Below are positions 9,052 to 62,987 of a stretch of DNA of 64,000 nt, piece by piece. The notes beneath the pieces are model-generated. The model did not search any database. It worked only from the letters and a program-made list of their open reading frames with translations, and had not been told where the DNA came from. The position numbers and the translations under genes are program-made. Where the stretch lies: assembly GCA_002245135.1 (NCBI GenBank), contig NGBS01000292.1:62001-126000 (forward strand). Reading direction: 5' to 3'. The first letter of the stretch is position 1, and each line of letters opens with the position of its first letter. This DNA is from Proteromonas lacertae. Lineage: Eukaryota.

Positions 9052-11680
9052 TTAGAATGTAAATAACTTACTAAACTTATTTCCGCTTTCCTCCACTTTC
9101 AATCCACTTTGTTTTATCATTTCTAATCTTTCTCTATTCCCCAATCCTCTTATTATCAATATTTTATTCAATTCATCTCCACTTCCATCACTCAACATAA
9201 TTAAGAAGTTTTCACACACTCTATCAATAGGAACACCTAATAATTTTATATATATTTCACTTCTTGTTAATAATTTATTCACTAATCTTGTATAAATAGA
9301 GGGAATAGTAAGATCATCATCTTTCTCTTCTTCTCGAAGATTCATCAGCGGTAACTTCGATAGAATATTCTTTATTTCAGTAAAATCAATTAATAACTGT
9401 TCACTTCCCTTCTCGCTTATTTTTTTGAATTTAAAGATACTGTTATTATATCGAGGAATAAATTCATTTAAAAATTTATCACAAAATGAACGGAAATAAG
9501 TATTACTCAAATTCAATCGAATTGATGGAATTCTATCGTTTAAAACACTTCTCATATCTTCAACATAATCACTCACTTCTTCTTTACTGTCATTTGAACT
9601 ATTCCAATTCTTACTGACCATTTTATCAAAACTGTTTTCTAAATCATAAACTACACTCTTTACTAATATCGTTATACAACTTGAACATAATTCATAATAT
9701 TTCTCGTTTATTGAATCTTCTAGTTTTATTTCATCTTGATACTTTTCATTGATGGATCGAACTATTAGTTTATCAATAGATGGTGAAATATCAGCTACAG
9801 CTTCACCTGTGTTTAAGATATTACATATAAATGTATAATCCTCTTTGTTTTTCATTACATAATAATCACCACCATTTACAATGAAGAATTAAAGAAATAC
9901 AAATACTTCAAAAAAATAAAAATAAAAAATATATAATAAAAAAATGATATAATTGGAAGAGGTTTTTGGTTGAGGCAATCTCTTATTCAAAGTTTCACAA
10001 TAATTCATCAAACATAATACAATTCTTTGATAAATTTCATAAAATATTTTTCCAGTATTCAACGTACTACATTCTTGTATAACAGCTCTTACTGTCTTTA
10101 ATATATTTTGAAAACTACTTAATACATATAATCCACCATTATTCATCAATCCTTTATCATCTAAACTACTATCAACTATATTATTCAATATATTCTCTTT
10201 TAACATTATATAATCATTCATATAATCTTCAAATACATTTGTTATCATTCCTTCAGGTGATTGCAATTTGTCTATATCTTCTTCTTCTTCTTCTTCTTCA
10301 TTTTCTTTATCATTTTCTTTATTCTTTTGTTTATTCTTTGCTTTTAACTTTCTTCTAATTCTATCACTTGCATTACCAACATCATCATCATCATCATCAA
10401 ATTCATTATCATTTTCATCATCAAATAAACTCATCGCCTTTCTTTCAAACACTATACTTTGCTTTAAAGCTGTAATCATCTCTCCTATATCTATATGTTG
10501 TTCAACTTTCATTATTTCACCATTATCTTTAAACTCTTCTCTTGGTTTTAACATCATTTCGTAATGCTTACGAGTTATTAATAAAAACTGAATACAAAGT
10601 CTAGCCTTCATTTTCCAGTGAGTTGGAAATATTGCCTCATATATATTTCCATATTTCTTTAATACTTTTTTGAAGAATGTAAATCGACGAATAACATTTT
10701 TAAAGTTTGATTCTTGTTTGCTAACTGCTGGATAAAACATTTGTCCATAGGCTTGAAGTTGATTGTTAGAGAATTTATTGATTAATTCCATTTTTATGGA
10801 TTTATCTAGATGATCTAATACTAAACAAGCATATTTCAATTTCATTTTTAAATTTTCTATTTCTTCATATTCTGGATCATCTACATCAATAAAATCTTTG
10901 TTAATTGATTCTATTTCACTAAAATCAGCTAATATGATTATTCCAAATTTATTTTTTATATCTCTTACTCGATCTTCAATATCTTTAATCTTTTTTACAC
11001 TTTCATATTCTTTAAATACTTTTGATATTTCATTTACTGCACTTATTACAGTTGATGCTTTTTCATAATCTCTATTAATACAATATGATTCTAACTCATC
11101 TAATGATTTCACTAACATTTGCAAACGTTCTAAAGCAGCTGTACTAGAACTTAAGTGTTTCTTTGCTATATCTAATTTCTTTATATCCCTATTAATATAA
11201 TAAACATAAAAAATATGATATACTTGCAAATATCTTCCACCATTACTTCACTTTGATTCGCTTTATCGTGAATTTCATTAATTTTATCACATAGAGTCTC
11301 TATAGCTCCTTTTGCTCTTTCTAATTCTTCTTCTGCTTCTTTTCCAGCTGTTGATTGTTGTTTCACCTATGAGTTTTTAAATGAAAAATATCAAAATCTA
11401 TACAGCTTCATTAATATCTCTATCTAGCTTTATTATTGCTTCATCCAGGTTTTCTCTATATGATTTCAGTTTATTTAATGAGTTTTCATCAGGAAACTAT
11501 ATTTTACGTGTAAATAAAATACTTTATTATTGATATATTCGATTGGATCAAAATCTGGAGCATCTAGTGGATCATTGCTTGAAATCACCTATTCATTCTA
11601 TATTTCTATTAGTATACAGATGATATAGCATTTTCAACCTCAGGAGAGAATACTATTAACTTAGGTTCTTCTTTATTCAT
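9052..11680 (-). CDS. VPS53: GARP/EARP subunit Vps53
   Basis: DPLDAPDFDPIEYIN..FPDE, KANQSEVMVEDIC..IKKLDIAKKHL, IFPTHW, ILNTGE, QLLID. Confidence 0.93.
9876..9950 (-). other. U12-type intron, AT-AA termini (VPS53)
   Basis: 5' ATATCATTTT, branch-like TTTCTTTAAT, 3' TGTAA. Removal joins SSN-Y-GGDYYVMKNK in frame. Confidence 0.7.
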
Positions 11681-11723
11681 GAAAAAGATCTTTCAAGAAT
11701 CGAGCCTAAAGCTTGAATTGTGA

Positions 11724-12554
11724 ATGAAGAAAAAAGATAAAACCAGACTGATGTATTACTCTGTAGCTGTTGTTTTAATTTGTATTGCAATACCTGTTGT
11801 ATATTCTTGGAGTATGAAAAATAAAGGTATTATGAAACTTGATTTTACGATAAAAAGAACTATACCACATGATAAAGATTCTTTTCTGTATATTTTTTGT
11901 AATTAAAGCATTAGACAAGGCTTCGAGTATTATAATGGTTTCATTTATGAAACTACAGGCTTATATGGTAAGTCTATTGTTAAAAAAGTTAATCCAGATA
12001 CAGGTGATGTAATTAAATTTGTTAAATTGGAAGATAAGTATTTTGGTGAAGGTTGTACCATTTTCAATAACAAACTCTATGTAGTGACTTGGAAAGAAAG
12101 AACAGGATTTATATTTAATCCAGATACATTAGAAAAAGAAAGTCAATTTTCTTTTAAAAGCACTAGAAATGAAGGATGGGGATTAACTCACGATGATAAG
12201 TATTTAATAATGTCAGATGGTTCTAATAATCTTCATTACTATGATAAAAACTTTAAATATATAAAGAAAGTTCAGGTACGTTATCAACAACAACCAATTA
12301 ATAGTTTAAATGAGTTAGAAAATATAAATGGTTTAATTTGGGCTAATATATGGTATAAGAATTTTATTGTCATAATTAATCCATCGAATGGTGAAGTTGT
12401 ACATACCGTTGATTGTAAAGAGATAGTAAAGAATAAGGGATACAGTGGAGATGTTTTAAATGGGATTTTGTATTACAATAATGAAGTTTATTTAAGCGGT
12501 AAACTATGGAATAAAATATTTGTTGTTGATTTTCCTCAATTACCCAAAAAATAA
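11724..12554 (+). CDS. Glutaminyl-peptide cyclotransferase (plant/bacterial beta-propeller type) with N-terminal signal anchor
   Basis: HD..F.QG, ETTGLYG, FGEG, EGWGLT, SDGS, LNELE, ANIW, VLNGI, GKLW. One short intron near 11888-11914. Confidence 0.9.
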
Positions 12555-12624
12555 GTGTTATAATTTATTTATTTATTTTGTTTGTATTTATTTTTCACAT
12601 TTTAATCAACTTTTAATCAATACT

Positions 12625-21600: not shown

Positions 21601-23868
21601 ATGCTAGAAACTGTGGTGACAGAGATTATTACTAGGTTTTTTGGAGATCTTATCCGTGACTTCCATAAAGAAGATCTTCATATCGGTGTTTCTAGTATGG
21701 AAGCAGAAGTAAAGAATCTAGTATCTTTCTGTTTATTATAATATAAAAAAGGAATTAAGAGAAGGGGCATTAAAAGAATTTAATGTACCAGTTGTTATAA
21801 AGAAAGGTGGTATAGGTAGATTTCATCTTCAGGTATGTATTGCTCTATTGATCTTTAGATGCAAAATGTTCGTGATGTCTATTCTATAGAAATTGAAAAT
21901 GTTTTCTTTCTGTTTAGTCCACAAGGTGAGCCAATCGTCACATTAGAAGAGAAAGTGGAATCAATATACAAACAAAGAAGAAATAAGCTCAAAGTATATT
22001 TATGATGATATTTAATTGCGGTAGCATTTTTTTGAATCAACAATAGAGAAAATAGTAGAACCAAAATTTGATCCACTTCCAAAGAACATGACATTTAAAA
22101 ATATTCATTTAAGAATAGAAGATACAACGTATAATATACTCTAAATCTTCCATTAATTACATATATTACTTAATATAGTGCTGAGCATCCATTTGCTATT
22201 GGATTAGTGGTTGAAAAATGCCAACTAGAAACGGCTCCACACAATACAGGTGTTAAAGGTACAAGGCAAAAAAATATTCATTTAAAAGGTTTCAGAATCT
22301 ATTACCATCCAGACATGAAGCAGCCAATGAATTGCAATGAAGGAATGAATGTATTTATATCTGATATGATGATTCCACTAACATCTTCACAATCTGACCA
22401 TCCATTATACCCACCAAAGTCACTAATATTACCATTAAATATATCAATAAAAATGATCTTTGATTTAAGAGACAAAAGAGACATATTTTTAAGCGAATTA
22501 ATAGATTTAGCCTCAATGTTGTCAAAACTGGACATTCACAGTGAAGAAGGTTTAAAAGTGGTTAATTCATGGATGGAGATGCATACTACTACAGATTTAT
22601 CAAAACTTACACCAGATGAAGCATTTATCCTATTATGCAAATCATTAGGTAAATGCCATAGGTTAGACTTAGTATCTGAGTTTAATAAACAAGCGATGAG
22701 TCTACAGAAGAAATTAAATAATCCAATGCTATCTATCACAGTAAATGTAGAAAATGTTTCAATGGAAGTATCACCAGAGTTAATTCGTGATTTATTTTCA
22801 TTTTATACACAATATATATTACATTATAATGTTGAAGTATACCATCAGTTTAAACCGGATTGTAGACCAGATAATAAAGAACATATATCATTTTTTTTTC
22901 TTATTTTTTTATCAAGTTTTCTTCATTTTTTTCACTGTAAATTGTGGTGGAGATATGCTTTGAAATCAATAGTATACAATCTAATCTCCAGAGAAAAGAT
23001 CAAATCATCATTTACATCATTTGATCGAATATTACAGAAGAATCGATATATTCATTTATACCAACGTAAACTCAATGCTCCTTGGTTAAGAATATTGAAA
23101 GGTGATATGGTAGCAATCTCACATTTAGATAAACTGGAGAGAGAAATCGATCCACAGAGACTATTGCATTATAGAGAATTAGCAGTGAAGGAAATTGAAG
23201 AAAAGAAAAAAATGAAATTTCCACCTCCTCCATTACCAGTGTATTTATTAATATTTTTATATTTTATTATTTTTAGTAAGAAAAAAGAACCACATGAATT
23301 AATAGATGGTATAAGAAAAGCACTGTATGGTTTATTATTAACTAGAAATAAGTCAAAATTAATGACTTATTTCGATAAATACAAACCAAATGATTTGCCA
23401 TTAAAGATTAGAGTTTATATTCCTAAAGTATCATTATCTATGAATAAATCCGTTGGTGATAAATTATGTGATATTTCCGCCAATAATATTCAAGTAAATG
23501 TATTAGCACGTCAATTACAGATGGATATTTCTATTAATGTTCATGATGTTAAACTGTTAGATTTTACACCTAATGCAGTATTTCCAACAGCATTAGATAA
23601 GAAGAATGAAGAAGGATTGGATGATGACTTTCTTACAGTGAATGTTTTCTTTCCACTAAAAGGTGATGATGAATTGAAAGTGAATGTAAAGTATATTAAT
23701 ATTATTATTTATATAATAGTATTGTTCCAATCTTATTATCCATCAATTTAGATTTATTTGTACATATAATAAAGACATATTCACCGAAACAAGATTTTGA
23801 ATGGACTGGGGTAGTTGATATGTTACAAAAAGGATCAAAGAAAGTGCAATTATTCGTAGAAGATTTCG

Positions 23869-23914
<46 letters not shown>

Positions 23915-26900
23915 AATGATAATCAATAGTTGGCTGATTCAATAACTAAAGATATGACGAAAGAATTCAATGTTCAATTTGATAAAATATTAATCCTACT
24001 ACCATTTAGATACAAAAGAGAGAATGTAATGTTGGGTTTACCCATTCAAAAAATCATATTAAAATCAGTTCCAAGAAGGTCAAGAAGAAGTACTTCAAAC
24101 ATATTTGAGTCTGATATAATGGATAGTAGAATATTATATGATGATATTTCCATATCAATACAAAGTATAACAGGTTTTTTAGCTAATATAAATGATAATT
24201 ATGATGATATTAATTATATTAATAATGAAGGATTAAAAGTAATTGAAGACTTTGCACTGAATGGATGTTTTTCTTACTGTATTAGAAGAAGTAATCCATC
24301 TTTACCGGCTAGTATTTTAACAATTAATATCAAGCCAATAATGATTATAATGAACTCAAAAAATTTCAAAAATGTTGATTATTTCATTCATGGTTGTTAT
24401 TTAGTAGTTCAACAATTCACCGATTTTTTCGCCTTTGGTTCAACTCCATCTGTAGAAACTGATGTAGAAACACCAGCTATCTGTCTATTATGTCAAAAGA
24501 TGTTTGCTTCAATAGATGCTGTGAAAAGTCACTTGTGGAGAAGGCATAATGTTGATATTAAAGATACTGATACAATGAATTATTATAGTTCAACTAATAA
24601 ACTAAAAGTCCCTTTTGTTATATCGAAGAATTTTGATAGGATTTATGATGATTATAAAGAGTACTTACAGTGTTCAAAAGTGATTATAAATGGTACAGAA
24701 GACTTAGCTTATATTCAACAAGATGTGAAGATGAAGATAGATGTAAATGTACAAGAAGTTGGTTTTACACTGCAATCACATGTAAATAACACTGATGTCA
24801 TTGAATTTCATATTGGACCAATACAAATTACTGGAAATCAACGTACTTTTGATTCAACATTTGAAATTGCTGTAAAGAATATGATATTGATAGATAAATA
24901 TAGAATGAAACTATTGAATTCAAAAACACCTATATATATGATTGATCCACAATATAAAGCATCTACTTACTGGCTATTGTCATTATGTTTAACCACTGTA
25001 CAATTTGGTTCTGATTTATATGAAAGTACAAAGGCTGATATATCAGGAGTATTAAGAATGGAAACTATTCAGTTAAATATACATCGTGATACTATCACTA
25101 TATTGTTACAAACTATCACTCCATTATTTTCAATGAAGGATTTATATAGAAGTAATTTGAATGATTTTGATGGGAATAAATCTAATGATAATGATAATAT
25201 CTCATTATTTCCATTCATTCCATTCTTAGGTAATAAAATTGGAATATATGATAATCCTTATAGACAAAAATTGAATATTAACTTAGTTTGGAATGGTTTA
25301 GAAGTATTTTTAAAAGATGAAAATCATCACACTGTAGTTGATTTAACATTAAGTGAATTTGTATTTGCTATATTACAACTTCCACTTGGATTACAGATAA
25401 ATGGATTTATTCAATCTGCTGTGATAAATTCTAAATCTTTAAATGGAAGAACACCACTTTTAACCTCTAAAATCACTAAAGAGTCTTTATTAACATTTGA
25501 TATTAGTTTTAATCAATTGATATATCATCCTGATTTTCACAATCAAGTATGTAATCTCAAAATGAATTGTGCTGGTTTTAATATAATCGTATCTCCTCAA
25601 CCATTCATTGATATATTTGATTTCTTTATGTATCCTCCATTAATTGATGTTTTATTCGTTAAAAGTTCATCTTCAATCAGTTTAGATGAAGTTACAAGTC
25701 CACGATCTGTTACAAACTCAGTTACTATTCTTATACCAGATTATGATTTATCATTAATTTTACCAGGAATAGATATACAATTGAGGAATATAGTATTATT
25801 AATTCCATGCGATATTGATTCTCCAGAGAAGTTTACAATAGATATTCCATTAATCACAATGTCAAGATTATCATCTGATAATAAAATCAAGTTAAATATT
25901 GATAATTTCAATGTTGTTAGTACTTATATAATACCAAATGAAGCGAATAGACTAATGATTTCTACATCATCAGAGAATGACAATTTGGTGACTATTACAC
26001 AAGAATTATTACATAATGTATCTGTAGAATCATATATAACATTAGAGAAATACTTATATATTACAATCTCTATTTCACCATTGTCATTATACTTAAATCC
26101 AAACCAAATTGAATTATTTTACAATATAACTACATCTATGTTGCAATATATCCCACTCTTTGATAAAGATAATAATGGTAAAGATGAGATTGTTACTCAT
26201 GTTGAAGTACCTAGTGAATTACTTCCAGATATTGAAGATGACGATAATAACTATAACCAGCCGAATAAAGTGAATAACTTATTCTTATTTTCATTACCAT
26301 TGATATTATCTGTTAATATTGAACATATATCATTAGATTTAGTTGATTCATTGGTTAATTTGGTTGAAACTATGGAAAAGGATGAGGAATTTTTAAAGAA
26401 AGTTAAATTGTCTTTATGTATAAAGAATATTGATGTTAATATTAGTATTAATCCTCATTTATTAGTAACAACAACTGTACAATCATTTATGTTAAAGAAT
26501 TCAATATTTGATACAAAATTAGATGATAATAATCGATATATTATCAACACAATTACTGAGTCAAATCTTTTACCATTTTTCTCATTCACTTATTCAATGG
26601 ATTTGAAAGATAATACACCCATTGTTAATCTCTCTATTAGTGTACAAGATATTATAATCAATCCTACAGCTATTACTGTTGATTTAGTATCTTGTATATG
26701 TAATATTATAATCTCTGATGTGTTAAAGTTTTTGGATATTGATTTACCTTTGAGAAGAAATGGAAGTGATTTATCTTCACCAATGAGACCTCAATCAATG
26801 TCATTTAATAATACAAATAGTGGAAATAACAGTGGAAATAATAGTACAATCCAGTCTACAAATACTCCATCAAATAGAATAATCCATAGAAAGTTAAGAT

Positions 26901-29900
26901 CGATTGATAGTCTTGGTTCAATATCTACAAATAGTTCATTTATAATTAATACTCAATATATAACATCAAGTTATGTAATTACTACTCAACCAATATCAAA
27001 TAATCTTATTTTAGATACTACAGCTTATAATATTAATGTTAAAGTCCATCATTTAACTCTAAGTATTGTTGATAATCCTATTTTACCAAACTCACCTACA
27101 TTAATATTCCAATTGAATTTAAATGGAAATATTAATTTGAATAATTCTAATATGGATATAGACTTGTTATTATCAAAGATATTAATATATTCATCTGATT
27201 CATTATTATCTATTAAACCTAATAAAGATAATACATTACTTTCTCCATGTGAAGTTAAAGCAAATATATCAACTAAACTACCTATGAATATTAATATAGA
27301 AGCAAAGAAAGATATAAATATTAGAATATCTAGTAATTATATTCAAATTATTAAAGATGCAATTAATAACCTTCAAATACCAATAATGATTATTAGAATC
27401 AAAGATCTTATATCAAAATTACCAAAATCACTATTACAACTACTAAATAACGCCAATAATAGTGATAATAACAATAATGGAAATCAATCAGCTAACAGTA
27501 ATAATAGCACTATCAATAGTTCACCTACAATGAAAGTAACTGAGATATTTACTGGTGAAACAATCAAGTTTGATATAAAAATACCATTAATCAGTTGTAA
27601 TATCGATTCTACCAATAATGGAACAGTAATGCCATGTTTAAACTGTCAATATCTATCAGATTGGAGTGAAAAAGGTTGATTCTGGTTTTACTACTGTTTC
27701 TTTAGGAGTTTCTGCTTCTTCTTATAATAAGAATGTTTCTGCATGGGAACCTGTATTTGATAAAGAGTTTTTCGTTACAAATATATACTTAGAACATAAA
27801 AAGACATATGATACATTGAATATAAAGATAAATAATGAAAAGAATATGGAACTTACTGTTACTACAGCATTAGTGAAGATATTATTAGAATTGATTAAAG
27901 ATTATACAGCTGAAAGACAGTCAATGAACGTGAATATTCCTGTTTTAGAATTACAGAATTATTGTGCAGAAACAGTGAAGTTTGTGAGTGAAATAGACTC
28001 TTCATTATCATCCAATTTATCACTAAACACTAGTAAATCTGATGTTCAGTTATTATATTGTCATTATGTATTATATAGAGATTTTCATAACAACGTTATA
28101 CATTTGGTTTGGCTTGAGATATATAATAATAGAGATTTACATTTATATTTAACAATCGATAAACAGAATCTATTAAGTAATAAACAAATAGGTGAAATTA
28201 ATATAAATGAAAAAGATAATTCAATTGAAATAATACCATTATCATCATCATCATCATCATCATTATCACTAGAAAATAACAACAATAATAACAAATTAAT
28301 ATTCTATTCAATAACAATCGATGATTTTAGTAAGCTATCCACTATCTTAAGACAATTAGATTCTAATTCATTGAATTCATCAGTTATTTCAACTGATTCT
28401 GCTAATTCCAATACTTCATCCTCTACTCCCAAGAAATCACCAATGCAAAGACCTTCTATATTATCATCAATATTAGCAGCTTCAGAAGATAATAATAATA
28501 ATAATAATCCTGCCAAAGTAGCAACTACAATAAAGGAATTAAAACAATACCAATCTATTCTGTTAGGTAGATTATTCAATCCCGTAGAATCTAGAAATAT
28601 TCAGTTATACATAGGTAAATCATCATTTTCAGTTAATCCAAGTAGAATTGGTTTAACCGTTCATAATGTAATTATTAATAGTCAAGAACAACAAATCATA
28701 TCTGAGGTAAAGTCAACAACCAAAGGTAAAGCAATTGTATTAAGATCTACATTTGATATTCAAAATCTATTAACAATAAACTTGACAATTTCAGCATTTA
28801 CAAAGCAAAGACAAATATTATTAACTCAAGAACTAAAACCAAACGATATTATGTATATACCATTAAGTTGTATAAATGAAGATGGAAGTTATGTTGTGAT
28901 AAAATCAAATGAATTAGGAGAAGTCCATAGATCAATACAATATTATATGTATTTAATTCCTAAAGATAAAGCCAATTCAGATTATTCTTGTGAATTTTCT
29001 GAAGTTTTTGTGAAAGGAAGTGATAAGTTTTATACAAGAGGTACGTTGAGTCATAATATTGTAACGGATATATTCAATCCAAAGCAAACAATTGTTATTA
29101 ATTCACTAAAATTAAGTCCATATATGATAATAGAAAATGCAATTCCTGAAGATATAAATGTTATTCTTAAAAACAAAGATTCATCATCTACTACAGATTC
29201 TATGGATTATTTCATACCAAAGAGTAAAAATCAAGTTGTTTATTCAGTTGCTGATTTATCAAAGAATAAATATTATATATCCATTCAATGTAATAGGTTT
29301 AGTGATAGTTATAGTGATACTTCCCCTCATTCAAAAATTATTCCTGGAAATATAAAAGGAAAAATGTCAGTAACAAGCAAAGATGGAAAATCGATTTATT
29401 TCTCATTTTCCAGTTATACATTACCTTCTGGTACTATTATTTTAACAGTTTATTTTGATTTATGGTTAATTAATCATAGTGGAATGACATTATGGTGTAG
29501 TAGTCAACAAACTGATAGTGAATTATATTCAATCAGTATGGTTTCTAAACCAACAAAGATATCATTACCTTCTAATGAGATTGAACCACAATATTTGATT
29601 GATAATTTTGAATATTTTGGTTTTCCAAATTCTTCTTCTACTTCATTATCTTCAAAATTGTATTTCTCCATTAATAAACCATTTGCTAAGTTATGGAGTA
29701 ATTGTTATAACACTAATTCCATATCAGTTCCTACAGAATTATCAATACAAACAACCTCTGGTAATAGAAGAGATTTAGTAATAACAAGTAAATTTGCACC
29801 ATCTAAATACTACAATACAAAAATCATTGAAATATCTTCAAAATATTATATTTGGAATTACAGTGATATTCCTATAGTTATAAGACAAGTTGATACTTTA

Positions 29901-32900
29901 GAATCAGTTGTATTGGATATTAATGAAAGCTGTCCATTTTATTGGTCAAATCCAAAAGGAAAATTGTTTTTACAATGTCATCCAAATGATGTTAATAATG
30001 AATGGTATTGGAGTGGCTCATTTGGGATTGATACAATGTTATATTCTGTAAGATTAGATAGTAAAAACACTGATATTTCTCCAATCTATATTGAATTAAC
30101 AAGTAAAATAATTGATGGTAAGAATATATTGATATTGAAGAATTCTACTAAAGATGATAGTACATATATGATAATTAATGATTGTATAAGTTATGAAGCA
30201 ATAGTTTATCAAAATAATACAACTGCTTATCATAAACTGAAGATTCCTCCAATGGAAAGAGAAGGTTTTGTATTTTATTCAACTATTTTACCACATGAAA
30301 TTATGGTTATCTTAAAACCAATTGATACATTAAATCTATCAAAATCATCATCATTATCATCAACAATAACAACAACTACTACTACATTATCATCATCAAC
30401 AAGTGGTAGTATTAATACTTCAAATGATATGTTATATAATAAAGAAATAATACAATGTATATTATCATTTGATAAAAGAAATGATAAGAAAATCATTAAA
30501 AAGAACAATAAACAGTTTATAATAATGGTTGATGTAATTGAGCTACATAAAGCCATTCATATCACTTGTTCAGAATTATCAGTTTTACAACCATACAATA
30601 TACAAATGTCTAAAGTAATTTATGATAAAATGATTATTAAACGATTGAATGAATTGACTGATTATTATCGAACTTATTCTCGAAATATTAAAGTAAAGTG
30701 TGAATCTTTTAATAAAGAAAGACCATCTACACCTATCAATGAGAATAAATGTAAATTTACTGTAATAAAAGTGAATAATTTACTTGGAATTAATTCTTCT
30801 ATACTCTCTGGACCATATATTCTAGTTATATCTAATGGTAATAAAACTGTCAATTATTCAATTGGTTTAGAAAAAACCTTCTATTTTGTAGAAAAAGAGT
30901 TGAATATTGATGATACAGGCAGTTTAATTATTTCATTATTTTGTCATACTGTTTCATCAGAGAATGAATATTATAAAAAAGAGTTCAATATATCCAGAAT
31001 AGAGTGTAATAAAATAATAGAATGTGATACACTAATGGATCAAGTAAAGAAAACAATTTCTACAATTTCAACCAGTGATAATAGTAATGGAAATGTCATA
31101 CCAGATGTTACATTGAGTTTTTCATTTTTAAGAACAACTACAGTGAAACAAGGTCATGAACAATTAGAATTATATTATCAAAGACAGAATGTATCGTATC
31201 TACAGGAATTACAACATAAAATTCGTAGTGAAATTGATAGTTTAAAGCAATTACATATAGCTACAAAATCTGGTAATATAAATATGGTTCAAAGATTATC
31301 AACTAGAAGAAGTACAAGACTTTCTAATGGAAGTAATAGTGGAAGAAATAATGAAAGTGGAAATAGTAGTGGAAATACTTCCTTACAGATGTATCAACAG
31401 AATCAGCAATTGATGTTAAATCTCTCAATTAATAATGCATTATTTAGAAATAGTGAAGGTATAATATATGCATGTTTATTAGATGAATATGGTAATAGTT
31501 ACTTTACTAATTCGACTCCCATTAATAGTAATACAAATAATAATTATGGAAATATACTGAGAGGAGTTCATAGATTAAAAATCAATACTAATTGTGAAGG
31601 AATATTGATTAATAAAACTGATAAAACTGTCTATATATATGGAATAATATCAGAGTCTATTAAACAAGATTATCCATTATTAGTTCCAGGTACAACGATT
31701 ATAACAATAAATTCAAAGCCAACCAGTGAAATGACAGTAAATGAGATTTATGATTTATTTCACACTAATGGATTGGAGTTGTTTATTAATAATGATAATA
31801 TTTCATTATTCACATGTGAATGGAATGAGGTATTTACACTACCAGTTGATAGTTTTGACAATAATTTCACTTTAGTTTTATTCAAAGAATGTAATGGTGA
31901 TGGAACTCCAAGAGAAAGTACAATTAAAGATTCTAGTCATATTGAAAGTACAAAATCACCCATAGTTACTCCAAGATCACCATTACCTTCAGTTCCATCA
32001 TCATCATCTACAACAACACAACCAACAATGACATCCATACCAACTTCACCTACAACAACAATTAATACAACTACAAATCCAACATCTACAACAACTGGAA
32101 CAACATCTGTAGTGAATGAACCATATGTAATAACAGTAGAAGGATTGAATAAACCATTGAATATCAGTAATATAAACAAAAGGAATGTGAATGATATATT
32201 TGTTGGTGCTTGTGAAATTCATTTCGATATGAATCATGTAGTTGGTAAAGAAATAATCAATAATAACAATGAATATATAAATATTGAAGGAATCTACGAT
32301 ATGAAAGATCTGTCATTTAAAGATGAAGAAATAACGATAGATTTACAGTTAAACCATATTGGATTGACTTTAATCGATACAAAACCTCGTGAATTGTTAT
32401 ATTTATCAATATTCCATATATTCTCCTCATTTACTCTAACAACAGATAATAATTTAGTATTTGGTTTAAAGATAGAAAAGTATTTCATTCAAGATATGAC
32501 TTGTCCATTATCATCCTTAGCAACTCCAAATACAAACAACAACAACAACAACAGTAGCAATAATAATGGTAATAGTTTAATAGTAATACATGAATATCCT
32601 AAAACAAATGTTATTGATTTGAGTATGAGTGGAAGAGATGTTTTATCTATTGATTATATAAGATTGAGTATTCAAAAATTGATAATTGTTTTACCAACTC
32701 AAGTGTTGATTAATATGATATTATTTGGATTAGATTTAGTTGATTTTAAAAGTGATAATATTAGTGTTAATAGTAACAATAGTAATAACCTAATGAATTT
32801 ATTATTACCTTACAGTGGTAATATTCAAATATCCTCTCCTCAATCTAAAGGTATAATTGGAATAAAATCTATCACAATATCTCCAATAAAAATGAGTTTA

Positions 32901-34218
32901 ACAATAACCTCTGGTTCTCAGAATATTGAAGATGTATTAATGAAATTACAAAATAATGCAAAGATTGCTGGAAGTTTAAGAATGATGTTAGGAGTGTTGA
33001 GTATAGTAGATGATGCAAAAATCAATTTGAATGAATTGAATGGATATAATATCTTTGATACACCTGTATATATATATATATATATTATTATTACTATTAT
33101 TATTATTAATATAGAATAACATTGGATTTAAAATGTTACAGCATTACAAAAGTGAGTTATTTTTACAAATCACCAAGGTATTTGGTCAATTATCATTAAA
33201 TATCAGTGGAACAGTTGGATTAGCTGTAGCAGTAGGAAAAGCATTATTAAAGAAACGAATAGAATATAATTGTCATTTATGTCGATATTTCGATCATAGT
33301 GGAATAGTTCGATGTTATAGTGAAAGAGATGCAATAGGTGGAAATATAGGGAAAAGAATGAATATAAATGATGATAGTTATATGTGGTCTACTCGAGTTA
33401 ATAATGGAAATGAAATTTTGATCTTATTTACGAATGAAATAATAATAATCGATAATTATACGAAGAGTTTAAAAAGTCGAATTTCTTTAATTAATTTGAA
33501 TATAATAATCGAAGGAAATGATATAATAAAACTGAAAAAAGAAAAAGTAAAATTCATCAATGAAAGTTTCCAAAAATTCTTCATTTCTCTAATCAATGAA
33601 TTTTCTCAAAAGCCAATAGTTTCATTTGAAAACAAATGGTTAATGAGAAATTGGATAATCGAAAATAGTCCATTTGAATCATTTAATTCTAATTTAATAA
33701 CATCTGAGTTAGAACCACCACCACCATTATCATCAACAACAACAACATCAACATCATCTACATTGAATTCATCAAATCAAAATACTCAATTAATGAATAA
33801 TGATAATAATAATAATAAATCAATGTTATTAAATCTAGTATATGATGGAAATGAAATTCGAAAAGAAAAGAATCGAATGTTAGTAAAAGGAAATGAATAT
33901 ATGGTATATCGATTTAAAGTGACAGGTAAATATGAAAATAAGATGTGTAGCTGGATGGTGTATAAGAGATGGATGTCTTTAGTGAAATTTTCCAGTTCAA
34001 TATCAAAATATAATAAAAGTGTTGAATTATCTAACAAAATGTCAATGTCGAATTTTAAAAAGAATATTGGTTTTATGAAAAGAACTGATGATAAGATAGT
34101 GAATGAGAGAGTGAAACAGATATTATATATGACGAAGGTAATAAATGAGACTAGTAGTTTGAAATACTTGAGTGAAGTTTTAAATTTCTTCAAAGAGAAT
34201 TTAGATGATTCGAAATAA
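21601..34218 (+). CDS. VPS13: VPS13-family lipid-transfer protein
   Basis: Chorein N-terminus (MLETVV..FFGDLI, L.L.EGAL, NIHLRIED), WWRYA, YN..VSAWEP, VAB repeats (FYW, WSGSF), IGLTLID..PRELLY. One +1 base at about 27670. Confidence 0.9.
22885..22935 (+). other. U12-type AT-AC intron, 51 nt, in frame and stop-free (VPS13)
   Basis: ATATCATTTT...TTTCTTCAT...CAC. Removes a Phe-rich 17-aa insert between RPDNKEH and CKLWWRYA. Confidence 0.8.
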
Positions 34219-42113: not shown

Positions 42114-44294
42114 ATGTTCTTCGGTTCTAACAACAAAAAGAATATTAGTATGGGAGGGAAAAAGAAAATGATTGTATTTTTTATAGAATATTTTCAATAG
42201 ACTCGTGATGATTTACTGCAAAAAGCTAAGCATAACAAAATAGAAGTAGAATTAAACAAGAAAAAGACAGCAAACTCTATTAAAATACAATCGGTATGGA
42301 GATCAAAGTTAGCTAGAAAGCAGCTGTATAAAGATGGTATAAAACTATTATGAGTTACATTATTAGCTGTTCAGTCAATACCTTTGATTTATAATTATGA
42401 TATAACAAAAGAACTATCCAAAGTTACACAGATATTAGTATTTACAAGAGATAAGTCTGGGACAAGTTTCGAAGAGTTTATTTATACATTAAATGAGATT
42501 ATGACAAAAATAGATTTGAATGAATACTTTAAAGATAATTCTAGAGATATACTGATGTTGAAGTGTTTGAATTTTGCACAATTATTACAATTAGGTTTGT
42601 ATTATATAATTCAAAATATTTCAGACCGTGTTTTATGTGAATCAAATCTATTAAATTATTTTAATTACCTATTTGAACAACAAAATTCTATAGATTTTCT
42701 TTTTTTCATAGGAAAATTTACATTTATGGAAATTATCAATCATTTCAATGTAATTAGAGAATTATCAATATTGTATATCAATAAAAACGATCTGTGGAAG
42801 AATTACATAAAATTACTTGAAATTACTGTTCAAAATGAGATGGGTTTCAGCAATATATACAATACTATTCAAAGTGGATTAATATTAAAAAAATCAAATA
42901 GCATATCACCAATATTTATGGTGATTTATCCAATCATCACAAAATCAACCAAATACTGTGTAAAATTTTGTAATTATTTCACATATCTAATAAATACATG
43001 TAATATCAATTATCCAAATGATTTAATTTATAGTTTGGTTAGTCATATAAATGATAAAATATCATTTTTTTTTCAAAAACATACTTATATATAGTTTTTC
43101 TTTTACTTTCTTTCAAATTAGCAATGGTTATAAAGAATCACTAGAATTAATTAATATACTCATATTAAAAGAAAATAAAGAAGATTTTAATGTTTCTAAA
43201 ATCTATTCAAAATATGTATATATATATAAATATAATATAATATAATATAATTATAGTGTAAAGAGTTGGAAGAAGAAGATGATGATGAATTTGTGTTTTC
43301 TATACCATCATTATGGTTATGTTGTAAATATTCACTCACTATTTTACCTATGAAATATAAACAAATTTGTAATGAACAAATTGTTATATTATATGATAAC
43401 TTAATAAAGAGTTATAATAATAATGATAATGAGAATAGAAATTTCAATATTATTGGATTAAGTGAATTTATTGTGAATTTATTGAAAACTACAAATATTA
43501 CATATATATCCTTTTCTTCTTTTATTAAAAGAGCATTTTAATCATTTCTTTAATTCTATTTTACACTCTTCATCCTTATTACAAAAGTGAGTCATTTGAA
43601 ACGATCAAATTTATAAAGATGATTAATGATTATGATAATCATTCAATTCTTCGCAATTTATTTGAATTACATACAAAATATGATTTATCCAATATACCTA
43701 GAATATTGCAAATCTGTTTCTTAATATTCAATACATTTTATTTACTAAACAATGAACAAAACTACAACAAATATGAGTTTATAAAAGATGAAATAATTAT
43801 TGAATTTAAAACCGTTATTATGCAATATATAAGGAATAATAAAGTTAATATAAGTGATGAGAATGATTTGATTTATATTGTAAGTATTTTACACTATTAC
43901 ACTGTATTATGCAACTTACATATAATTGAAAATGACAGTGTTTTATCTTTACCACTCAACATTGAGAATTTTATGAAGAAAATAAAAAATTTCGATTATA
44001 CAGCTCATGATAAGTATAAAGAAGGGAATATTGAAGATTTAATCTTAAGTATCTTCCCTCAAGTATATATATATATATATATATAATATGATTATTAATT
44101 CTAATAGTTAATACCATTCAGTAGTCGTATAAATATATTCCAAAATTACTTGCACAATTCAATACAATCAGATTTCACTTATAGTTTTCATGATAATGTA
44201 ATAAAAGTTAAAAGAAATCAAATACTTTTAGATACAATAAGGGCTTGTTATAATAAAGAAAGTAGAATATTGAAATTTCCATCTTATGTCAGAG

Positions 44295-44325
<31 letters not shown>

Positions 44326-45567
44326 ATTGATTAGATTGCATTTGTTGATGAATATGGAGCACAAGAAGAAGGAATTGATGGAGGAGGTTTGTTTAAAGAA
44401 TATATGGAGTTATTAAATAAAGAAATATTTGAAGGGAAATATAACTTATTTATTGTATTTTTATATTTTATTATTATTATTATTATATAGTCTAATGAAG
44501 ATAATCTCCTTTATCCAAACCCTTACATTAAACCGAAAAATAAATTAGAAGATTTTGATTGTTCTATTTATTATGAATTAATTGGTAATATTATTGGAAC
44601 AGCAATCAATAGAGGAATTGTATTGAAATATCAATTTGCAGAATTCTTTTTAAACAGAGTATATATTATATATATATGTATATATAGTTAATGGGAAAAG
44701 ATATTTCATTCAGAGAGTTAGAATCATATGATAGGGAAATATATAACAGTTTATTACAATTAGCTAAATCAACAGAGTATTTTTATTATTATATATATAT
44801 AATAATTATTTTTATTTAAATAGTGAAGAGTTGGAATCATATTGCCTTACATTCTCAATAAGTAGAAAAGTGATTAAATTAAATAAAGATAAAGATGAAT
44901 CTTCTGATGATGAATTTATCACTCACGATTTGATTAAAAATGGTAGAAATATATCCGTTACAAAAGAGAATTTGATGAGTTATTTGCAGTTGTGTTTGCA
45001 ATATTATTTAAGAGATGAGATTATTGATAATAGCACTTATATTATTAGAGGATTTCATAATCAAGTTAGCCCTACAGCATTGTATTTGTTTAATCCAGTA
45101 TAATTATTATAGTTTTTAATTTATATTTATTCTAATGTATTTTATATAGGTTGAATTTGGTAATATTATCTCTGGAATTCATGTAGATATTGATATTGAA
45201 GATTTAAAGAATAATACACATTATACTTATTATATTCCTGAAGATAGATGGGTTAAATGGTTTTGGGAAGTATATATATTAGTTATTTATCTTTTTTTAC
45301 TAGATATTAAATGAAATGACTGAAAATGAAAGAAGTGATTTATTACAATTTGTGACAAGTTGTCCAAGAGCTCCATTACTCGGTTTTAAAAGTTTAAATC
45401 CAAAGTTTACTATTCAAAGAGTTAATTTGACGAAAGGGGAAATGAGACTGCCAACAAGTTCGACTTGTGTGAATTTGTTGAAATTACCAGCTTATGATTC
45501 TAAAGAAAAGATGAAAGAGAAGATTTATCAAGCTATCCCTTCTCATACTGGATTTCAGATGTCTTAA
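42114..45567 (+). CDS. HECT E3 ligase, UBE3B/UBE3C-like
   Basis: N-terminal MFFG..ISMGG and IQSVWR IQ motif. EEGIDGGGLFKE, LLQFVTSCPRAPLLGF, LPTSSTCVNLLKLP (catalytic Cys). Confidence 0.9.
43059..43116 (+). other. U12-type intron, AT-AA termini (HECT gene)
   Basis: ATATCATTTT...TTTCTTTTAC...TTCAA. This end restores NDK-ISNGYKES. Confidence 0.65.
43506..43564 (+). other. Canonical U12 AT-AC intron (HECT gene)
   Basis: ATATCCTTTT 5' site, TTTCTTTAAT branch, TAC end. The downstream exon is in frame with ORF 43619. Confidence 0.9.
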
Positions 45568-46658: not shown

Positions 46659-46691
<33 letters not shown>

Positions 46692-48967: not shown

Positions 48968-49803
48968 CTACTTTCTACTCTTCCATATAATAATCACAAT
49001 TATACCCTATAATAATATTTAAACTATAAATATACAAGTATTACTAGCAAAACAATCACAATATACTTCCACTTTTCTTTCAACATTTCACATTTTAATC
49101 TTTTAGCATTTCTATTAAACTGTTACACTCTCTACAATTAAAATCAACTAAATCATATATATTAACAAAAAATGATATTTCTGTAGAAGATAATAAGTTA
49201 TCTGTTTTGTTAACCAATGATTCAGCTTCTTCATGGTTTTGTATCATAATTTCAATATTACTAGACATTGTGCCTTTAATATCATCTATTTTCTCTTGAG
49301 CCTGTATAATTGAATTAGCTTCTGGACTATTATATCTTTTCATTTCTTTCTTAATTGTTTTTTGAAAATCTCTCATTGCGTATGGTGCTGCTGTACGTAT
49401 AGAATCTTCGTATTCTTTTAAAAATGACTTTCCTATACATTCTAAATAAGCTTATGTTGAATTAAGAAACATTAAATCACTAAACATAAAAAAAGATATA
49501 TAGACAGTTCTTAAAGACATTCCTCTATCACTTAGAGCTATAAAATGGACTGATTCTTTAGTAAAGGAGTGAAAATCCAGTTCTCTAGTAATATAAGTAT
49601 ACTGAAGAATACTCATTATAATGATAAGTCTGCTTTGCAGAGTCATCACTGTAAGAATTGTTCTGGACTATTTTTTCTACTATTTCATCAAAATCATCTT
49701 TCTCTTTTGCTGAAGCATAGTTACAAAGCACAATATTTCTAAAATCTATAGCCACGCATATATACCTTCGAATTATAGAAGTATAAAGTAATTTTTGACT
49801 CAT
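48968..49803 (-). CDS. VAMP7: Longin R-SNARE VAMP7-like
   Basis: Longin N-terminus, TAAPYAM, IKGTMSSNIE...LVNKTDNL, C-terminal transmembrane helix. Confidence 0.85.
49123..49178 (-). other. U12-type intron, AT-AA termini (VAMP7 SNARE motif)
   Basis: ATATCATTTT...TTTTAAT...GTGTAA. Gives KTDNLLSSTE-QFNRNAKRL with correct SNARE register. Confidence 0.65.
49452..49499 (-). other. U12-type intron, AT-AA termini (VAMP7 longin domain)
   Basis: ATATCTTTTT...TTTCTTAAT...CATAA. Gives LRTVY-AYLECI. Confidence 0.75.
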
Positions 49804-52068: not shown

Positions 52069-52123
52069 TTAATAAACAATGAATAATTTAATTAAAATAT
52101 TTATATTTATTTGATTTTGTTTT

Positions 52124-58547: not shown

Positions 58548-58676
58548 TTCCAAAAATTAATTCGTTTCAACTTTCTTATTTTAACTCAAAAACAAACAAA
58601 TAAACAATATAAATAATCTAAATATATTAAATAATAATTTATATAATATAGAATAATAGAAGTAAATATGATATAT

Positions 58677-58754
58677 ATTCATCAGAGGGCTTGGAAAAAC
58701 ATAATGCTATAATCACAGTATTTTATATCATAATAATATGATTCATCACTGAAT
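58677..58754 (-). ncRNA. Box C/D snoRNA
   Basis: Box C GTGATGA (58749-58743), box D CTGA (58685-58682), terminal stem ATATATATTCA/TGAATATATAT. Guide TTTTTCCAAGCCC is complementary to GGGCUUGGAAAAA. Confidence 0.85.
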
Positions 58755-58777
58755 ATATATCATATAATAAGAATAAA

Positions 58778-58857
58778 ATTATATCGTCTTCAGATTGAGT
58801 AGGAGTAAAAAGTATTCATCAAATGAATCAGAACCAAACACTCATCATCGATATAAT
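58778..58857 (-). ncRNA. Box C/D snoRNA
   Basis: C ATGATGA (58848-58842), D' CTGA (58831-58828), C' TTGATGA, D CTGA (58793-58790). 9-bp terminal stem ATTATATCG/CGATATAAT. Guide CTCCTACTCAA. Confidence 0.9.
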
Positions 58858-58937
58858 AAGAGAAATATATATATACCTTAATTATCAAATCTTCCCTCCC
58901 TTTTTCTTTTATATCATAATCTACAATATAATATTAA

Positions 58938-59080
58938 ATATATGACAGTATTGAGGAGTATAAAAGTAAGTAAAATATCTGATATATCCTATTCTCTTAA
59001 CTTCATCACATTTGCTTTATAGACCACCGCGAAACATTAAAAATATTAGAAAAAGCATATCATGTTTTAGAAATGGTCAA
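58938..59080 (-). ncRNA. Box H/ACA-like snoRNA
   Basis: Hairpin GACCA/TGGTC plus AAACAT/ATGTTT with internal pocket, H-box AAAGCA, weaker second hairpin, ATA box. Confidence 0.6.
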
Positions 59081-59156
59081 AATAGTAGATAATTATGATT
59101 TATAAATACCTTTCTTTATACACTTTCTTCTTCATTTAATATTCTATTATTATTAA

Positions 59157-59293
59157 ATATATGATAGTCTCGAGAGAATATAACAATAAAATCAATTACA
59201 CTCTGATCTAACATATCATAGAGTGATATTTAGACCTTTTGGAAAACATATAGATTAGAATAATAATGAATATGTTTTTGGTATAAAGGTCAA
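59157..59293 (-). ncRNA. Box H/ACA-like snoRNA
   Basis: GACCTTT/AAAGGTC and AAAACATAT/ATATGTTTT stems, H-box ATATCA, second hairpin, ATA box. Confidence 0.7.
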
Positions 59294-59398
59294 ATAAATA
59301 TAAGAAAAAGTAAAATCATTATTATAAATATATACCTCTACTGTCAATTCTTTCATTCTCTGATTGTTTATCTTTTATATATATACATTATCTATATA

Positions 59399-59536
59399 AA
59401 ATGTAGTATTACTAACTAGCTCAACGAAAATTCAAAAGGTTCAGTCGTTAGGTAACGATTAATACAATTATAATATATGATAACAATAGAACGATATAAA
59501 TATATATATTATTATATATCGAGCGCTGTTGTCAAT
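59399..59536 (-). ncRNA. Box H/ACA snoRNA
   Basis: GACAACA/TGTTATC plus CGATATA/TATATCG, H-box ATATTA, GTATTA/TAATAC plus TAACGA/TCGTTG, ACA box. Confidence 0.78.
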
Positions 59537-59655
59537 GAATAAGAAAGAAAAAAAATGATAATTAATATATACATACTTGTCTTTTTATCTTCATTCACTA
59601 CAATATTATTTCATTCAAAAGAATTGGATGTGATGACTATAAATATAAGATAAAT

Positions 59656-59793
59656 GGATGTAATTGATTTATTTGGTTTAAATATTTATCAAGATTAAAT
59701 ATTAAACTGGTCAAACCAAGTATAATAGATATAAGCATTCCAGATAAACAAGTATGACGTTAAAAATGCCATATATGTCAGTATGAATGCTAA
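59656..59793 (-). ncRNA. Box H/ACA-like snoRNA
   Basis: AGCATTC/GAATGCT hairpin, second hairpin with AATATTTA/TAAATATT, ACA box. H-box not clean. Confidence 0.62.
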
Positions 59794-59872
59794 TAAAAGT
59801 AGAAATATACATACACTTCAATATATCATTCTTTAAGATGAGCTTGACTTATTTCAATACCTATAAAAATTA

Positions 59873-60045
59873 GTATATCCGATTAAAGGAGACATTATTA
59901 ACATTGAGTGTTAATAATGTACTATGATAATCTTAAAATATAGAAAAGTAAAGACAGCCAATAGTGGTAAGTAGAAAAACTCTAAATATCACAAGGTCCT
60001 ATCATTACACAAGATGTGTTAAGGATTACTGTAGTTACAATTCAT
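59873..60045 (-). ncRNA. Long H/ACA snoRNA predicted to guide pseudouridylation in LSU helix 69
   Basis: 3' hairpin GATTA/TAATC with perfect 12-bp upper stem. Pocket TCATAGT + CTCCT pairs with GGGAG-UA-ACUAUGA. ATA box about 14 nt from the target. Confidence 0.8.
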
Positions 60046-60288
60046 ATTTCAAGTAATAATAGAATAATAAAAATACATTAACTATTTGTTGCTCCTAAAA
60101 ATGTAATGCAATCTAGAAAATGCATGATGAAAAATGTAAGTAAATGATTGGATGTTCTAAAAGCTTGAAGGTTTGCTTAATTTAATTTTGATAAGCCTCA
60201 TAGCAAAATAAATTATATAGTAAATTATTGCATTCCATATTCACATAAATAATTCTATTTTGCATCGTTTTTCTTTTCTTTTTATTTC

Positions 60289-62987
60289 ATGTTTGGCAAG
60301 CATAAGAATGAATTGACGAAGGAAGATAGAGGTAGACCATTGAAAGATGTATGAAAAATATAATATTGATGAATAGATATCAAAATGGCTTCAAAATCTC
60401 ATATATCTAGGTGAAAATGATGACTGTGAAATACTCAAAGATCCAATAAATCAGATAATGCAAGTTTATAGTATAATGAGTATTAATAAAGCAAATAGAC
60501 CAATGTAATGCAATGATTAAGGAGGATACTAGCACTGGACCTGATAATTTATCTAATCAATTCAAGGAGATGATTGTGAGATGGTATATTTGCATTAATA
60601 TTACATATATCGAAATAGTGGTGAAGAAATGCCAATAAGAACCCCATTATATGGTTCATTTGTTGCTTATAATATCATTTTCATAAATTTCGATATGAAT
60701 ATTCTTTAACGAAATATAATTAACAAAAATAAAAACGAATACATCGATGATATACTTCAAATAACTATGACTCATTTAAATGAAAACCTGATAAGTGGTG
60801 ATACTCGTAAAACTCGATTAATTCTAAGATTTATTACTGAATTAATGAACAATCACGTCATTACCTTCAATAGTTATTCAGAACTCATTGATTCATTAGT
60901 AAACCATGCTATTAGTAATAACAGTGTAGTAGGATATATGGAATGGCTATTTTATATAGTACTTTGTGCAATACCATTTGTATATATTTTTTATTTATTT
61001 TTATATAAAAATAGTGTCGAACTGAATATATTAAAGACAATATACCAATAATTCAATCAATATTATCAAAGATAGAAACTAATAATCGTGGAAATGTAAC
61101 TTATCCAATCTCCAAATCACCATTTATCAATGAACAACTAGAAAAACCAACTCATCAATTGTTACAGAATATTCAGTCAATAAGTTTTGAAGAATATCAT
61201 CATAGTTGTTTTATTATGAGAATATATAAATTATTTGAAAGTATATATTTATTTATATATTTATAGGTTATGAGTTTATGGATGATTCATCAGAGATGGA
61301 AATTGATTCAGAATCCTTACTACACAATTTACAAATTGATTTACCAACAATTGTATATTTATATAAATATATTATATAGGATTCTACTCATATTTATACA
61401 CTTCATTCAATCTTCAATCAACATGATATCAATGCGAATACCAAACAAGTTCGAGTTGAAGATTTAATAATCATTAGACAATATGTGATGGATATAATTG
61501 ATGGATTTTCTAAAGATCCTAATACAATAACCAAGCTTATCTCAAACCTTCATACCTCATCTAGTAGTTTAATCTATAAAGATGAATCTCCCATTGATGT
61601 TAATTATTATTCTAATATACATTATATTACAATGGATATATTGATAAGTTTCATTATCAATATTCCTGTAATGGAATATCCAATTGTTATGTTTAATAGA
61701 GTTACTCAGATGTTGGTGATAAAAGCAGATAGTACTAAATTTGCTAAATGTGTATGATATATATATATATATATTTCTCATTTTTAAACCTGTTTTTTTT
61801 TGCTGTTACTTTTACTTTGTTTATTCTCTCTCATTCTTCATTACTTTATTATCTTTATTTCAATAGATGGCTCAATATGTATTTGCCTTAACTGAAAAGT
61901 TTTTCAAACTGCGTTTATTATGTCGAGACAGAATTACCGAATGGTTTGCATCTTATTTATACTCGGTAAGTTATGAATGGCCTTGGAAAAAGTGGCAAGA
62001 AATACCAAACTACTCAAGCACAGATTCAAGATATTTATTTTTAAATGATCTATTTTCTATATTAAATCAATACTCAAGAGATTTGAAAAATAATGAAAAA
62101 ATAGCTAGAGAGTTTAGAGAAGAATTTATATTGGATTTATCTATTAATTTCAACTTTTTGAATAGTTATGATGATGAATTAAATGGAATAATTGAGAAAA
62201 TAGATAAAACTGTTCAGCAAATTGCTTCTAAAAAGACAGCTGAAGAAATCCATGCATTTATAGAATCTGAAGTTATTGCTGTAAAAGTTGAACAGTCAAA
62301 AAAGAAGAATAAAAAAAGTAAAAAAAGCAACAAAATGGAAGATGATGATGATGATAATGAAAACAAGAATTTAGAGGAAGAAGACGATGATGATGATGAT
62401 GATGACGAAGATGAAAAAGATGATGAAGAAGAAGGTGAAATAAAACAACCAAAAACATTAACAAAAAGAGAAGAGATATTAATATTTTTACCATCCTTCT
62501 TAAAACAATCATCCATAAGTTATCAACATTTAAAGATTTATACTGAAAGATATAAAGATTATATTAGATCACTCACTCTATCAGATAATGGTGAAGTTTC
62601 AGTAGAAAATAGTCAATTGATAATTAATATTATATGTAATTGTCTTTTGAGACATTATCATCAACAATATGTTATATATGAGAATTTTATGAGGAATGAT
62701 ATTATTAAAAGTCATTTGATTGTTGAACATTTGATTAAAAACCAAGAAGATACTGCAAAACCATTGATATATCAGTATAATAATATCTTTATTTATTTAT
62801 CTATATAGTTATAATTATTATTGGATTATAATTAATATATTGAAATATTTATACTTCAATAAGAAAGAAGATGATCTTAATAGTTGTTTAGATATATATA
62901 TCAAGTTAATTCCTGTTCATTTTATATATGATGATAATGAATTTAAGAGATTGTGGTGTGATAGAATTGAAGAATTAATATATGAAG

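Follow-up and report, generated by a model that had tools for sequence, protein, structure and literature searches.

Seven short introns that begin with AT, distributed among five genes of a 64-kb stretch of Proteromonas lacertae contig NGBS01000292.1 (positions 62,001 to 126,000; hereafter the window), are probably U12-type introns, spliced by a minor spliceosome that would gauge the 3′ end from the branch site and accept AA as readily as AC. AT-AC are the textbook ends of AT-starting minor introns, and the most highly conserved signals of minor splicing include the last intron base and the sixth donor base (+6). An AA majority among minor introns likely represents a shift in splicing rules for which we found no description in the papers searched. 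All intron and end calls rest on the sequence of the window and on protein homologs. The predicted introns, referred to below by the position of their first base, are as follows:

9876..9950, minus strand: AT-AA intron of VPS53, 75 nucleotides (nt), phase 1, branch A at about 9889
22885..22935, plus strand: AT-AC intron of VPS13, 51 nt, phase 0, branch A at about 22925
43059..43116, plus strand: probable AT-AA intron of the HECT ligase gene, 58 nt, phase 0, branch A at about 43105
43506..43564, plus strand: AT-AC intron of the HECT ligase gene, 59 nt, phase 0, canonical ATATCCTTT donor, branch A at about 43553
49123..49178, minus strand: AT-AA intron in the R-SNARE motif of the VAMP7-like gene, 56 nt, phase 0, weak branch site with A at about 49138
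49452..49499, minus strand: AT-AA intron in the longin domain of the VAMP7-like gene, 48 nt, phase 0, branch A at about 49462
60672..60719, plus strand: AT-AA intron of NCBP1/CBP80, 48 nt, phase 1, branch A at about 60709

The host genes, two of which (HECT ligase and VAMP7-like SNARE) carry two AT introns each, were assigned as follows:

9052..11680, minus strand: VPS53, from Vps53_N upstream and Sec6/VPS53_C downstream of the intron, and from the gene model
21601..34218, plus strand: VPS13-like gene, from a profile match and the gene model (a structure search with this gene gave no match)
42114..45567, plus strand: HECT E3 ligase gene, from a profile match and the gene model
48970..49803, minus strand: VAMP7-like longin R-SNARE gene, ends approximate and placed by eye
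60289..63138, plus strand: NCBP1/CBP80, from a MIF4G match, PDB matches at E 0.03 and the gene model

The coordinates, strands, donors, +6 bases and lengths of the seven introns (75, 51, 58, 59, 56, 48, and 48 nt) agree with those given in an initial annotation of the window. All seven donors read ATATC[ACT]TTTT, with the fourth T in every case; +6 is A in five, C in one and T in one, such that only one donor is exactly ATATCCTTT and six are off consensus at +6, with the C at +5 kept throughout. A TTCCTTAAC-like branch site, altered by C-to-T changes, is clear in six introns and unconvincing in 49178. The TTTCTT(T)AAY-like form proposed in the initial annotation fits four introns well and 22885 and 43059 loosely, and is a poor description of 49178. 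The branch A lies at −11 (three introns), −12 (two) or −14 (one) relative to the 3′ end, the short spacing, lacking a long pyrimidine tract, that is associated with U12-type introns; in 49178 it lies at −16 or −22. The terminal trinucleotides are YAA (five) and YAC (two). Five of the seven introns are in phase 0, so the usual bias of minor introns away from phase 0 is not seen here.

These signals separate the AT introns from the major introns of the window, represented by 94 GT-AG introns in 24 genes modelled with a self-trained gene model. Among the latter, 94/94 donors are GTAT, a figure that is partly circular because the gene model was seeded on GTAT introns; 89 end in TAG, the median length is 33 nt, and GC content is 14%. 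They are unusually uniform, in part as a result of this seeding, and many have (AT)n interiors. The gene model misses the VAMP gene, PIG-V, a NUDIX gene and the region 58560-60200, and by eye we estimate the true count of major introns to be nearer 110-135. TTCTT occurs at −28 to −9 in six of seven AT introns vs 1/94 major introns, and a match to the textbook branch site with at most two mismatches in five of seven vs 1/93. As the initial annotation had also noted, the AT introns are longer (Mann-Whitney p=5e-5); 9/94 major introns reach 48 nt. None of the seven has the major-intron combination of a GTAT donor, a (T)AG end and a length of about 33 nt. By itself, the donor motif does not exceed chance expectation in the window (26 sites vs a shuffle mean of 20.4), whereas the donor combined with TTCTTT?AAY within 15-75 nt occurs at five sites, four of them AT introns of this set, vs a shuffle mean of 0.36 and a maximum of three in 200 shuffles. 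The extended donor ATATC[ACT]TTTT has 10 sites: the seven AT introns, two that are antisense to exons, and one (63746) at an apparent gene end. By the signals tested, the seven introns likely belong with U12-type introns.

It has to be considered whether the AT introns could be non-canonical substrates of the major spliceosome or of a single hybrid spliceosome, given that the major GTAT donor is one base from ATAT, that the bases at +2 to +4 are common to the AT introns and to 94/94 major donors, and that U2-dependent AT-AC introns are known (PMC1557818). Furthermore, no U11, U12, U4atac or U6atac small nuclear RNA (snRNA) and no minor-specific protein was seen in the 64-kb window, which says nothing about the rest of the genome. 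However, the AT introns are distinct from the major introns in the C at +5, the T run, the branch motif (6/7 vs 1/94), length and YA[AC] ends, and Blastocystis ST1 is reported to have all four minor snRNAs, which is relevant if the present lineage is Blastocystis-like. We therefore regard non-canonical use of the major machinery as very unlikely.

The gene models are consistent with removal of the AT introns. A model restricted to GT-AG introns splits or truncates VPS53, the HECT gene and NCBP1 precisely at the AT introns, and in total splits, truncates or misses four of the five host genes; as a consequence, gene sets and calls of "gene loss" in such genomes may be wrong. When ATATC introns with any A-N end were allowed, the broken genes were mended, and the AT donors were chosen in 5/5 cases in modelled genes, with one false call; the VAMP gene fell below threshold in this model. 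Twelve decoy donor 5-mers yielded zero to five calls each (16 in total), nine of the 16 being shifted forms of the same introns. GT-starting minor introns were not found: GTATC[ACT]TTT has no site in the window, and the gene model used none of 68 GTATC sites; the site at 21721 starts with GTATCTTTC but lacks the branch motif. Four further sites were rejected as AT introns. The candidate AT-AC intron at 35321-35360 was picked by the model, but the GT-AG form 35298-35331 agrees in length with the paralog and has the better score by a modest margin (439 vs 434), and there is no branch motif. The ATATC[ACT]TTTT site at 63746 (minus strand) was taken as a gene end and has no branch site, and the sites at 3871 and 14635 (both minus strand) lie inside open frames.

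The 3′ ends were assessed intron by intron. In 60672, the 48-nt AT-AA form aligns ungapped over 102 residues to the CBP80 homolog P0133, scoring 162, whereas none of the 28 alternative in-frame ends exceeds 154; there is no frame-keeping GT-AG form, and AT-AC forms add three or remove 12 residues. Based on this alignment, 60672 almost certainly ends in AA. The proteins P0131, P0132 and P0135-P0137, which are NCBP1 fragments of relatives, all start at the first Met past the 60672 intron, as would be expected if they were likewise interrupted just upstream. For 49178, residues 45-90 (of 91) of the upstream exon match positions 2-47 of the Synaptobrevin profile, and residues 1-30 of the downstream exon match positions 49-78. 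Exactly 56 nt must be removed, because only then do the profile positions run 47, 48, 49, and the AG 3 nt further on would delete one SNARE residue; an AA end is thus very probable, a shade less firmly than in 60672.

For 49499, the downstream exon matches Sec22b from residue 1 and VAMP7 from residue 2, and the upstream longin register was not recovered by any tool tried. A rival 30-nt GTGA...AAG intron, which would add six residues, is not separated from the AT-AA form by homology, but major donors are uniformly GTAT; we consider AA highly likely here, next in firmness after 49178. In 9950, the 130 nt that follow the donor contain neither AC nor AG in frame. Homology does not choose the acceptor because the junction lies in a variable loop, and the AA end was picked both by the gene model and by the spacing rule described below. 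Rival GT-AG forms would leave 44-50 nt of T-rich intron in place while cutting away 35 nt of exon, and we judge the AA end to be likely. Stop read-through at 9889 was rejected, as it would insert 25 T-rich codons.

The weakest 3′ end of the set is that of 43059, for which there is no homology and the frame permits either AA at 58 nt or AT at 34 nt; a rival 28-nt GTTT...TAG intron lies at 43094-43121. A branch site chosen blind to the 3′ end, combined with spacing, gives 58 nt, and AA is the more plausible end by a fair measure. The intron at 22885 is in frame and stop-free, and retention is formally possible. Its read-through would place 166 residues against 142 VPS13_N profile positions, the profile match restarts at the acceptor, and the gene model and spacing rule agree on AT-AC. 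For 43506 there is likewise no homology; the intron joins two halves that the GT-AG-only model splits, the spacing rule agrees, and a 26-nt AT-AG form is also in frame. Taken together, AT-AA ends are likely for 60672 and 49178 by homology to the codon, and for 49499, 9950 and 43059 by frame and branch spacing. The initial annotation had assigned all ends by frame and homology; homology indeed fixes 60672 and 49178 and supports the exon start in 49499 and 22885, but is uninformative for 9950 and absent for 43059 and 43506.

The spacing of the ends relative to the branch site provides a line of evidence that makes no use of frame, and it matters most for 9950, 43059, and 49499. In each intron, the segment 12-70 nt past the donor was searched for the sequence closest to the textbook branch consensus, and the 3′ end played no part in this choice. 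If the end is taken as the first A-N lying 9-10 nt or more beyond the branch A, it coincides with the frame-restoring end in six of seven introns; if it is taken as the first YA[A/C] past the branch site, all seven ends are predicted with any threshold from 7 to 10 nt. When only AC or AG is allowed, two of seven ends are predicted. The YA[A/C] rule was formulated with the ends already known, and the rule-threshold pairs examined numbered 70, so this agreement counts as support and not as a blind test.

Besides the circularity of the GTAT figure, the post hoc spacing rule and the lack of minor snRNAs in the window, several observations weigh against the reading of the seven as AA-tolerant U12-type introns. 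In 49178 there is no convincing branch site, and three AGs located 6-10 nt after the site chosen would have to be skipped. The gene model chose a 34-nt AT-AT form at 43059. A perfect ATATCCTTT at 3871 (minus strand), inside an open reading frame (ORF), appears unused. The modelled coding sequence, about 46 kb, contains at least three frameshifts that involve no intron, and a single dropped base at either of two positions would change the ends called: a dropped G at 49451 would make 49499 an AT-AG intron, and a dropped C at 49122 would make 49178 an AT-AC intron. These last points raise the possibility that the seven are ordinary AT-AC or AT-AG minor introns, or GT-AG introns, with most AA ends arising from assembly indels or wrong acceptors; the existence of GT-AG rival forms for 43059, 49499 and 9950 is in keeping with this. 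However, every frameshift seen falls in an A run, and about 1,500 GG/CC runs in modelled exons are without a slip; moreover, a homopolymer slip cannot restore AC or AG in 60672, 9950 or 43059, and spacing selects the AA ends without the use of frame. Misassembly or misplaced acceptors are therefore an unlikely source of most AA ends. The frameshifts themselves, which are single-base, without an intron and probably assembly errors, are at 27677 (plus strand) in VPS13, at about 48075 (minus strand) in an unknown gene, and at about 4235 (minus strand) in an armadillo-like repeat gene.

The following sequence of events would account for the AT introns. U11/U12 would bind the donor and the branch site; where C has become T in the latter, canonical U12 would still be able to pair through G-U wobbles. 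The cut would fall at the first YA[A/C] that follows the branch A by about 10 nt or more, with AG passed over. In canonical minor splicing, the terminal intron bases form a non-Watson-Crick pair, and U11 and U6atac present G opposite +6. In the AT introns an A-A terminal pair would replace A-C in most cases, and strong AT mutation pressure would have replaced C where it is tolerated, namely at +6, in the branch site and at the last base. The C at +5 would have been kept and, with the A at +1, would set these donors apart from the GTAT[A/T] donors of major introns. Every departure from the textbook signals (at +6, at two branch positions and at the last base) is a change of C to A or T, and drift from C to A or T at tolerant positions in a genome of 25% GC explains the pattern without new machinery. 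This is compatible with published work in which U11/U12 reads the donor and branch site jointly, 48K reads the first three intron bases, the optimum for the 3′ end is 11-13 nt from the branch site, and non-canonical ends are spliceable, with AT-AG disfavoured (PMC3584512).

Alternatively, the same introns could be served by co-evolved minor snRNAs, with U11 and U6atac carrying U opposite +6 and a 3′ end pocket that prefers A. Five of seven introns have A at +6, whereas drift under pairing with G would favour T (wobble), as in the +6T class of Physarum; the U12 of Physarum has co-varied with its branch site; and in 49499 and 49178 AA is taken although an AG or AC lies next to it. Conversely, C and T also occur at +6 of the seven donors, and about four U11 bases are reported to be free to pair (bioRxiv 2023.12.22.573053), such that the T run and branch site may make up for a single mismatch. 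Since A, C and T are all found at +6 and no single snRNA base can form Watson-Crick pairs with all three, compensation is no more likely than relaxation under AT pressure. We thus consider co-evolved snRNAs a tentative and rather improbable reading; a changed U11 or U6atac is possible and is not required. In the interpretation offered by the initial annotation, the parts that gain support from sequence, frame, homology and spacing are the U12-type character, the high density and the relaxed last base.

Probable minor introns make up seven of the 101-140 introns in the window (5-7%; 95% interval 2-14%), and 7/7 start with AT. The 95% interval for the AT-AA share is 29-96%, and the sample of seven comes from one window flagged for this very trait, so the density and AT-AA figures lean high, a further point against the reading proposed here. 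AT-AA introns are rare elsewhere, as the initial annotation stated: they constitute 1.1% of animal and 3.0% of plant conserved minor introns, and 4.5% and 10.4%, respectively, of those starting with AT (PMC10639083; PMC1557818). The animal and plant AT-AA introns have the same termini, donor core and branch spacing, but are a small minority there and the majority here (PMC10639083; PMC1557818). Relative to the animal and plant rates, the probability of five AA ends among seven is 4e-6 and 2e-4, respectively; for three among seven it is 0.003 and 0.03. In the portions of the literature available to our search, we found no report of a species with mostly AT-AA minor introns.

The closest parallels are with Blastocystis ST1 and Physarum polycephalum. 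Minor introns are below 0.5% of introns in most species, typically with about 22% in phase 0; Blastocystis ST1 has 346 among 35,412 introns (0.98%), with AT-AC accounting for 77% of 253 and phase 0 for 49% (PMC5608401; PMC10639083). The density in the window exceeds that of Blastocystis ST1 (P = 7e-5 to 5e-4). Both have a compact genome, major introns of about 30 nt, and short, phase 0-rich minor introns that mostly start with AT (PMC5608401). They differ in that AT-AC is typical of Blastocystis ST1, whereas here five of seven introns end in AA and +6 is mostly A, although the pipelines used there may miss AA ends (PMC5608401; PMC10639083). The phase 0 excess shared with Blastocystis ST1 suggests gains within the lineage. 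The words "minor" and "U12" do not occur in the main text of the low-GC Blastocystis genome paper or its preprint. In Physarum, 20,899 of 175,198 introns are minor, and AT-AA represents 27% of 1,014 non-canonical ones (bioRxiv 10.1101/2020.10.12.336362). Similarities with the window are high density, a relaxed +6 (C/T in Physarum), non-canonical ends and a fixed branch-to-end distance (9-12 nt), but Physarum minor introns are mostly GT-AG with a TTTGA branch site and a co-varied U12, whereas those of the window have a near-canonical branch site and A at +6 (bioRxiv 10.1101/2020.10.12.336362).

High local density and the phase 0 excess could also be attributed to the spread of an introner, a mobile element whose copies would have AT...AA ends, and the hosts are mostly off the human/mouse minor-intron list: NCBP1 is on it, with a GT donor, and VPS53, VAMP7, VPS13, UBE3B and UBE3C are absent. 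Yet inspection of the seven interiors, which did not include a formal repeat search, revealed no common sequence, inverted ends or target duplications, and an origin as introner copies is highly improbable.

It is doubtful that the pattern of the window extends genome-wide, with minor introns as about one in 15-20 of all introns, all AT-starting and mainly AT-AA, and with U11 and U6atac changed opposite +6. If it did, Physarum would be joined by a second lineage rich in minor introns, and this one would be the first with AT-AA as the default, missed by pipelines that allow only GT-AG, GC-AG and AT-AC. A genome in which AA outnumbers AC and +6 is mostly A would provide a natural test of two questions: whether a ruler or sequence governs 3′ end choice, and whether changes in introns are followed by changes in snRNAs. 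Should the density be borne out, such a genome would add a case for how minor introns are gained.

Two features of NCBP1 are recorded separately. A 115-nt GT-AG intron at 61752-61866 (plus strand) is C/T-rich, with TTCTTCAT about 30 nt before its end, unlike the other major introns, and is possibly a converted minor intron. At about 60470-60500 the frame shifts, either through a 28-nt GTTT...AAG intron (60421-60448, plus strand) or through an indel.

The window is tightly packed with eukaryotic genes, including VPS53, VPS13, HECT ligase, longin R-SNARE, NCBP1, gamma carbonic anhydrase, CFAP20, EMC6, PIG-V, kinases and others. Its GC content of 25% falls between the published values for reptile-host Blastocystis (21.5-23.1%) and Proteromonas (27.0%), and GC content, intron size and kept stop codons are similar to those of the published genomes from these organisms; on these features, a Blastocystis-like stramenopile is somewhat more likely than not. 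The nearest proteins to those of the window are 98% and 76% identical. The motif TGTTTGTT is not enriched (eight in the window vs 5.6 expected), in agreement with the report for reptile-host Blastocystis and Proteromonas genomes. When metagenomes were scanned with alignments of NCBP1 and of gamma carbonic anhydrase, 89 and 101 pattern matches, respectively, were returned, none a confirmed relative; the VAMP gene had no match in viral and phage collections, a word-based search with a VAMP exon found no relative, and exact look-up of six window ORFs found none (0/6) in the collection searched. The gamma carbonic anhydrase gene at 39963-40652 (plus strand) has relatives that are 96-98% and 75% identical on many public contigs, which suggests that public runs often contain the organism and a sister lineage.

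Among the remaining genes, a kinase family is represented at 2559-3444 and 13067-17705 (both minus strand) and at 34338-37428 and 45752-47140 (both plus strand); two of these are long genes in which short exons recur and phase-1 introns are shared. A glutamine cyclotransferase of the Glu_cyclase_2 family (E 9e-68) is encoded at 11814-12554 (plus strand). GC-rich stretches containing GTCCC/GGGAC units in AT-rich intergenic surroundings at about 1190-1290 and 2150-2300 are possibly the ends of a small mobile element. A tandem pair of galactosyltransferase-like genes with few or no introns is located at 56009-57103 and 57492-58547 (minus strand).

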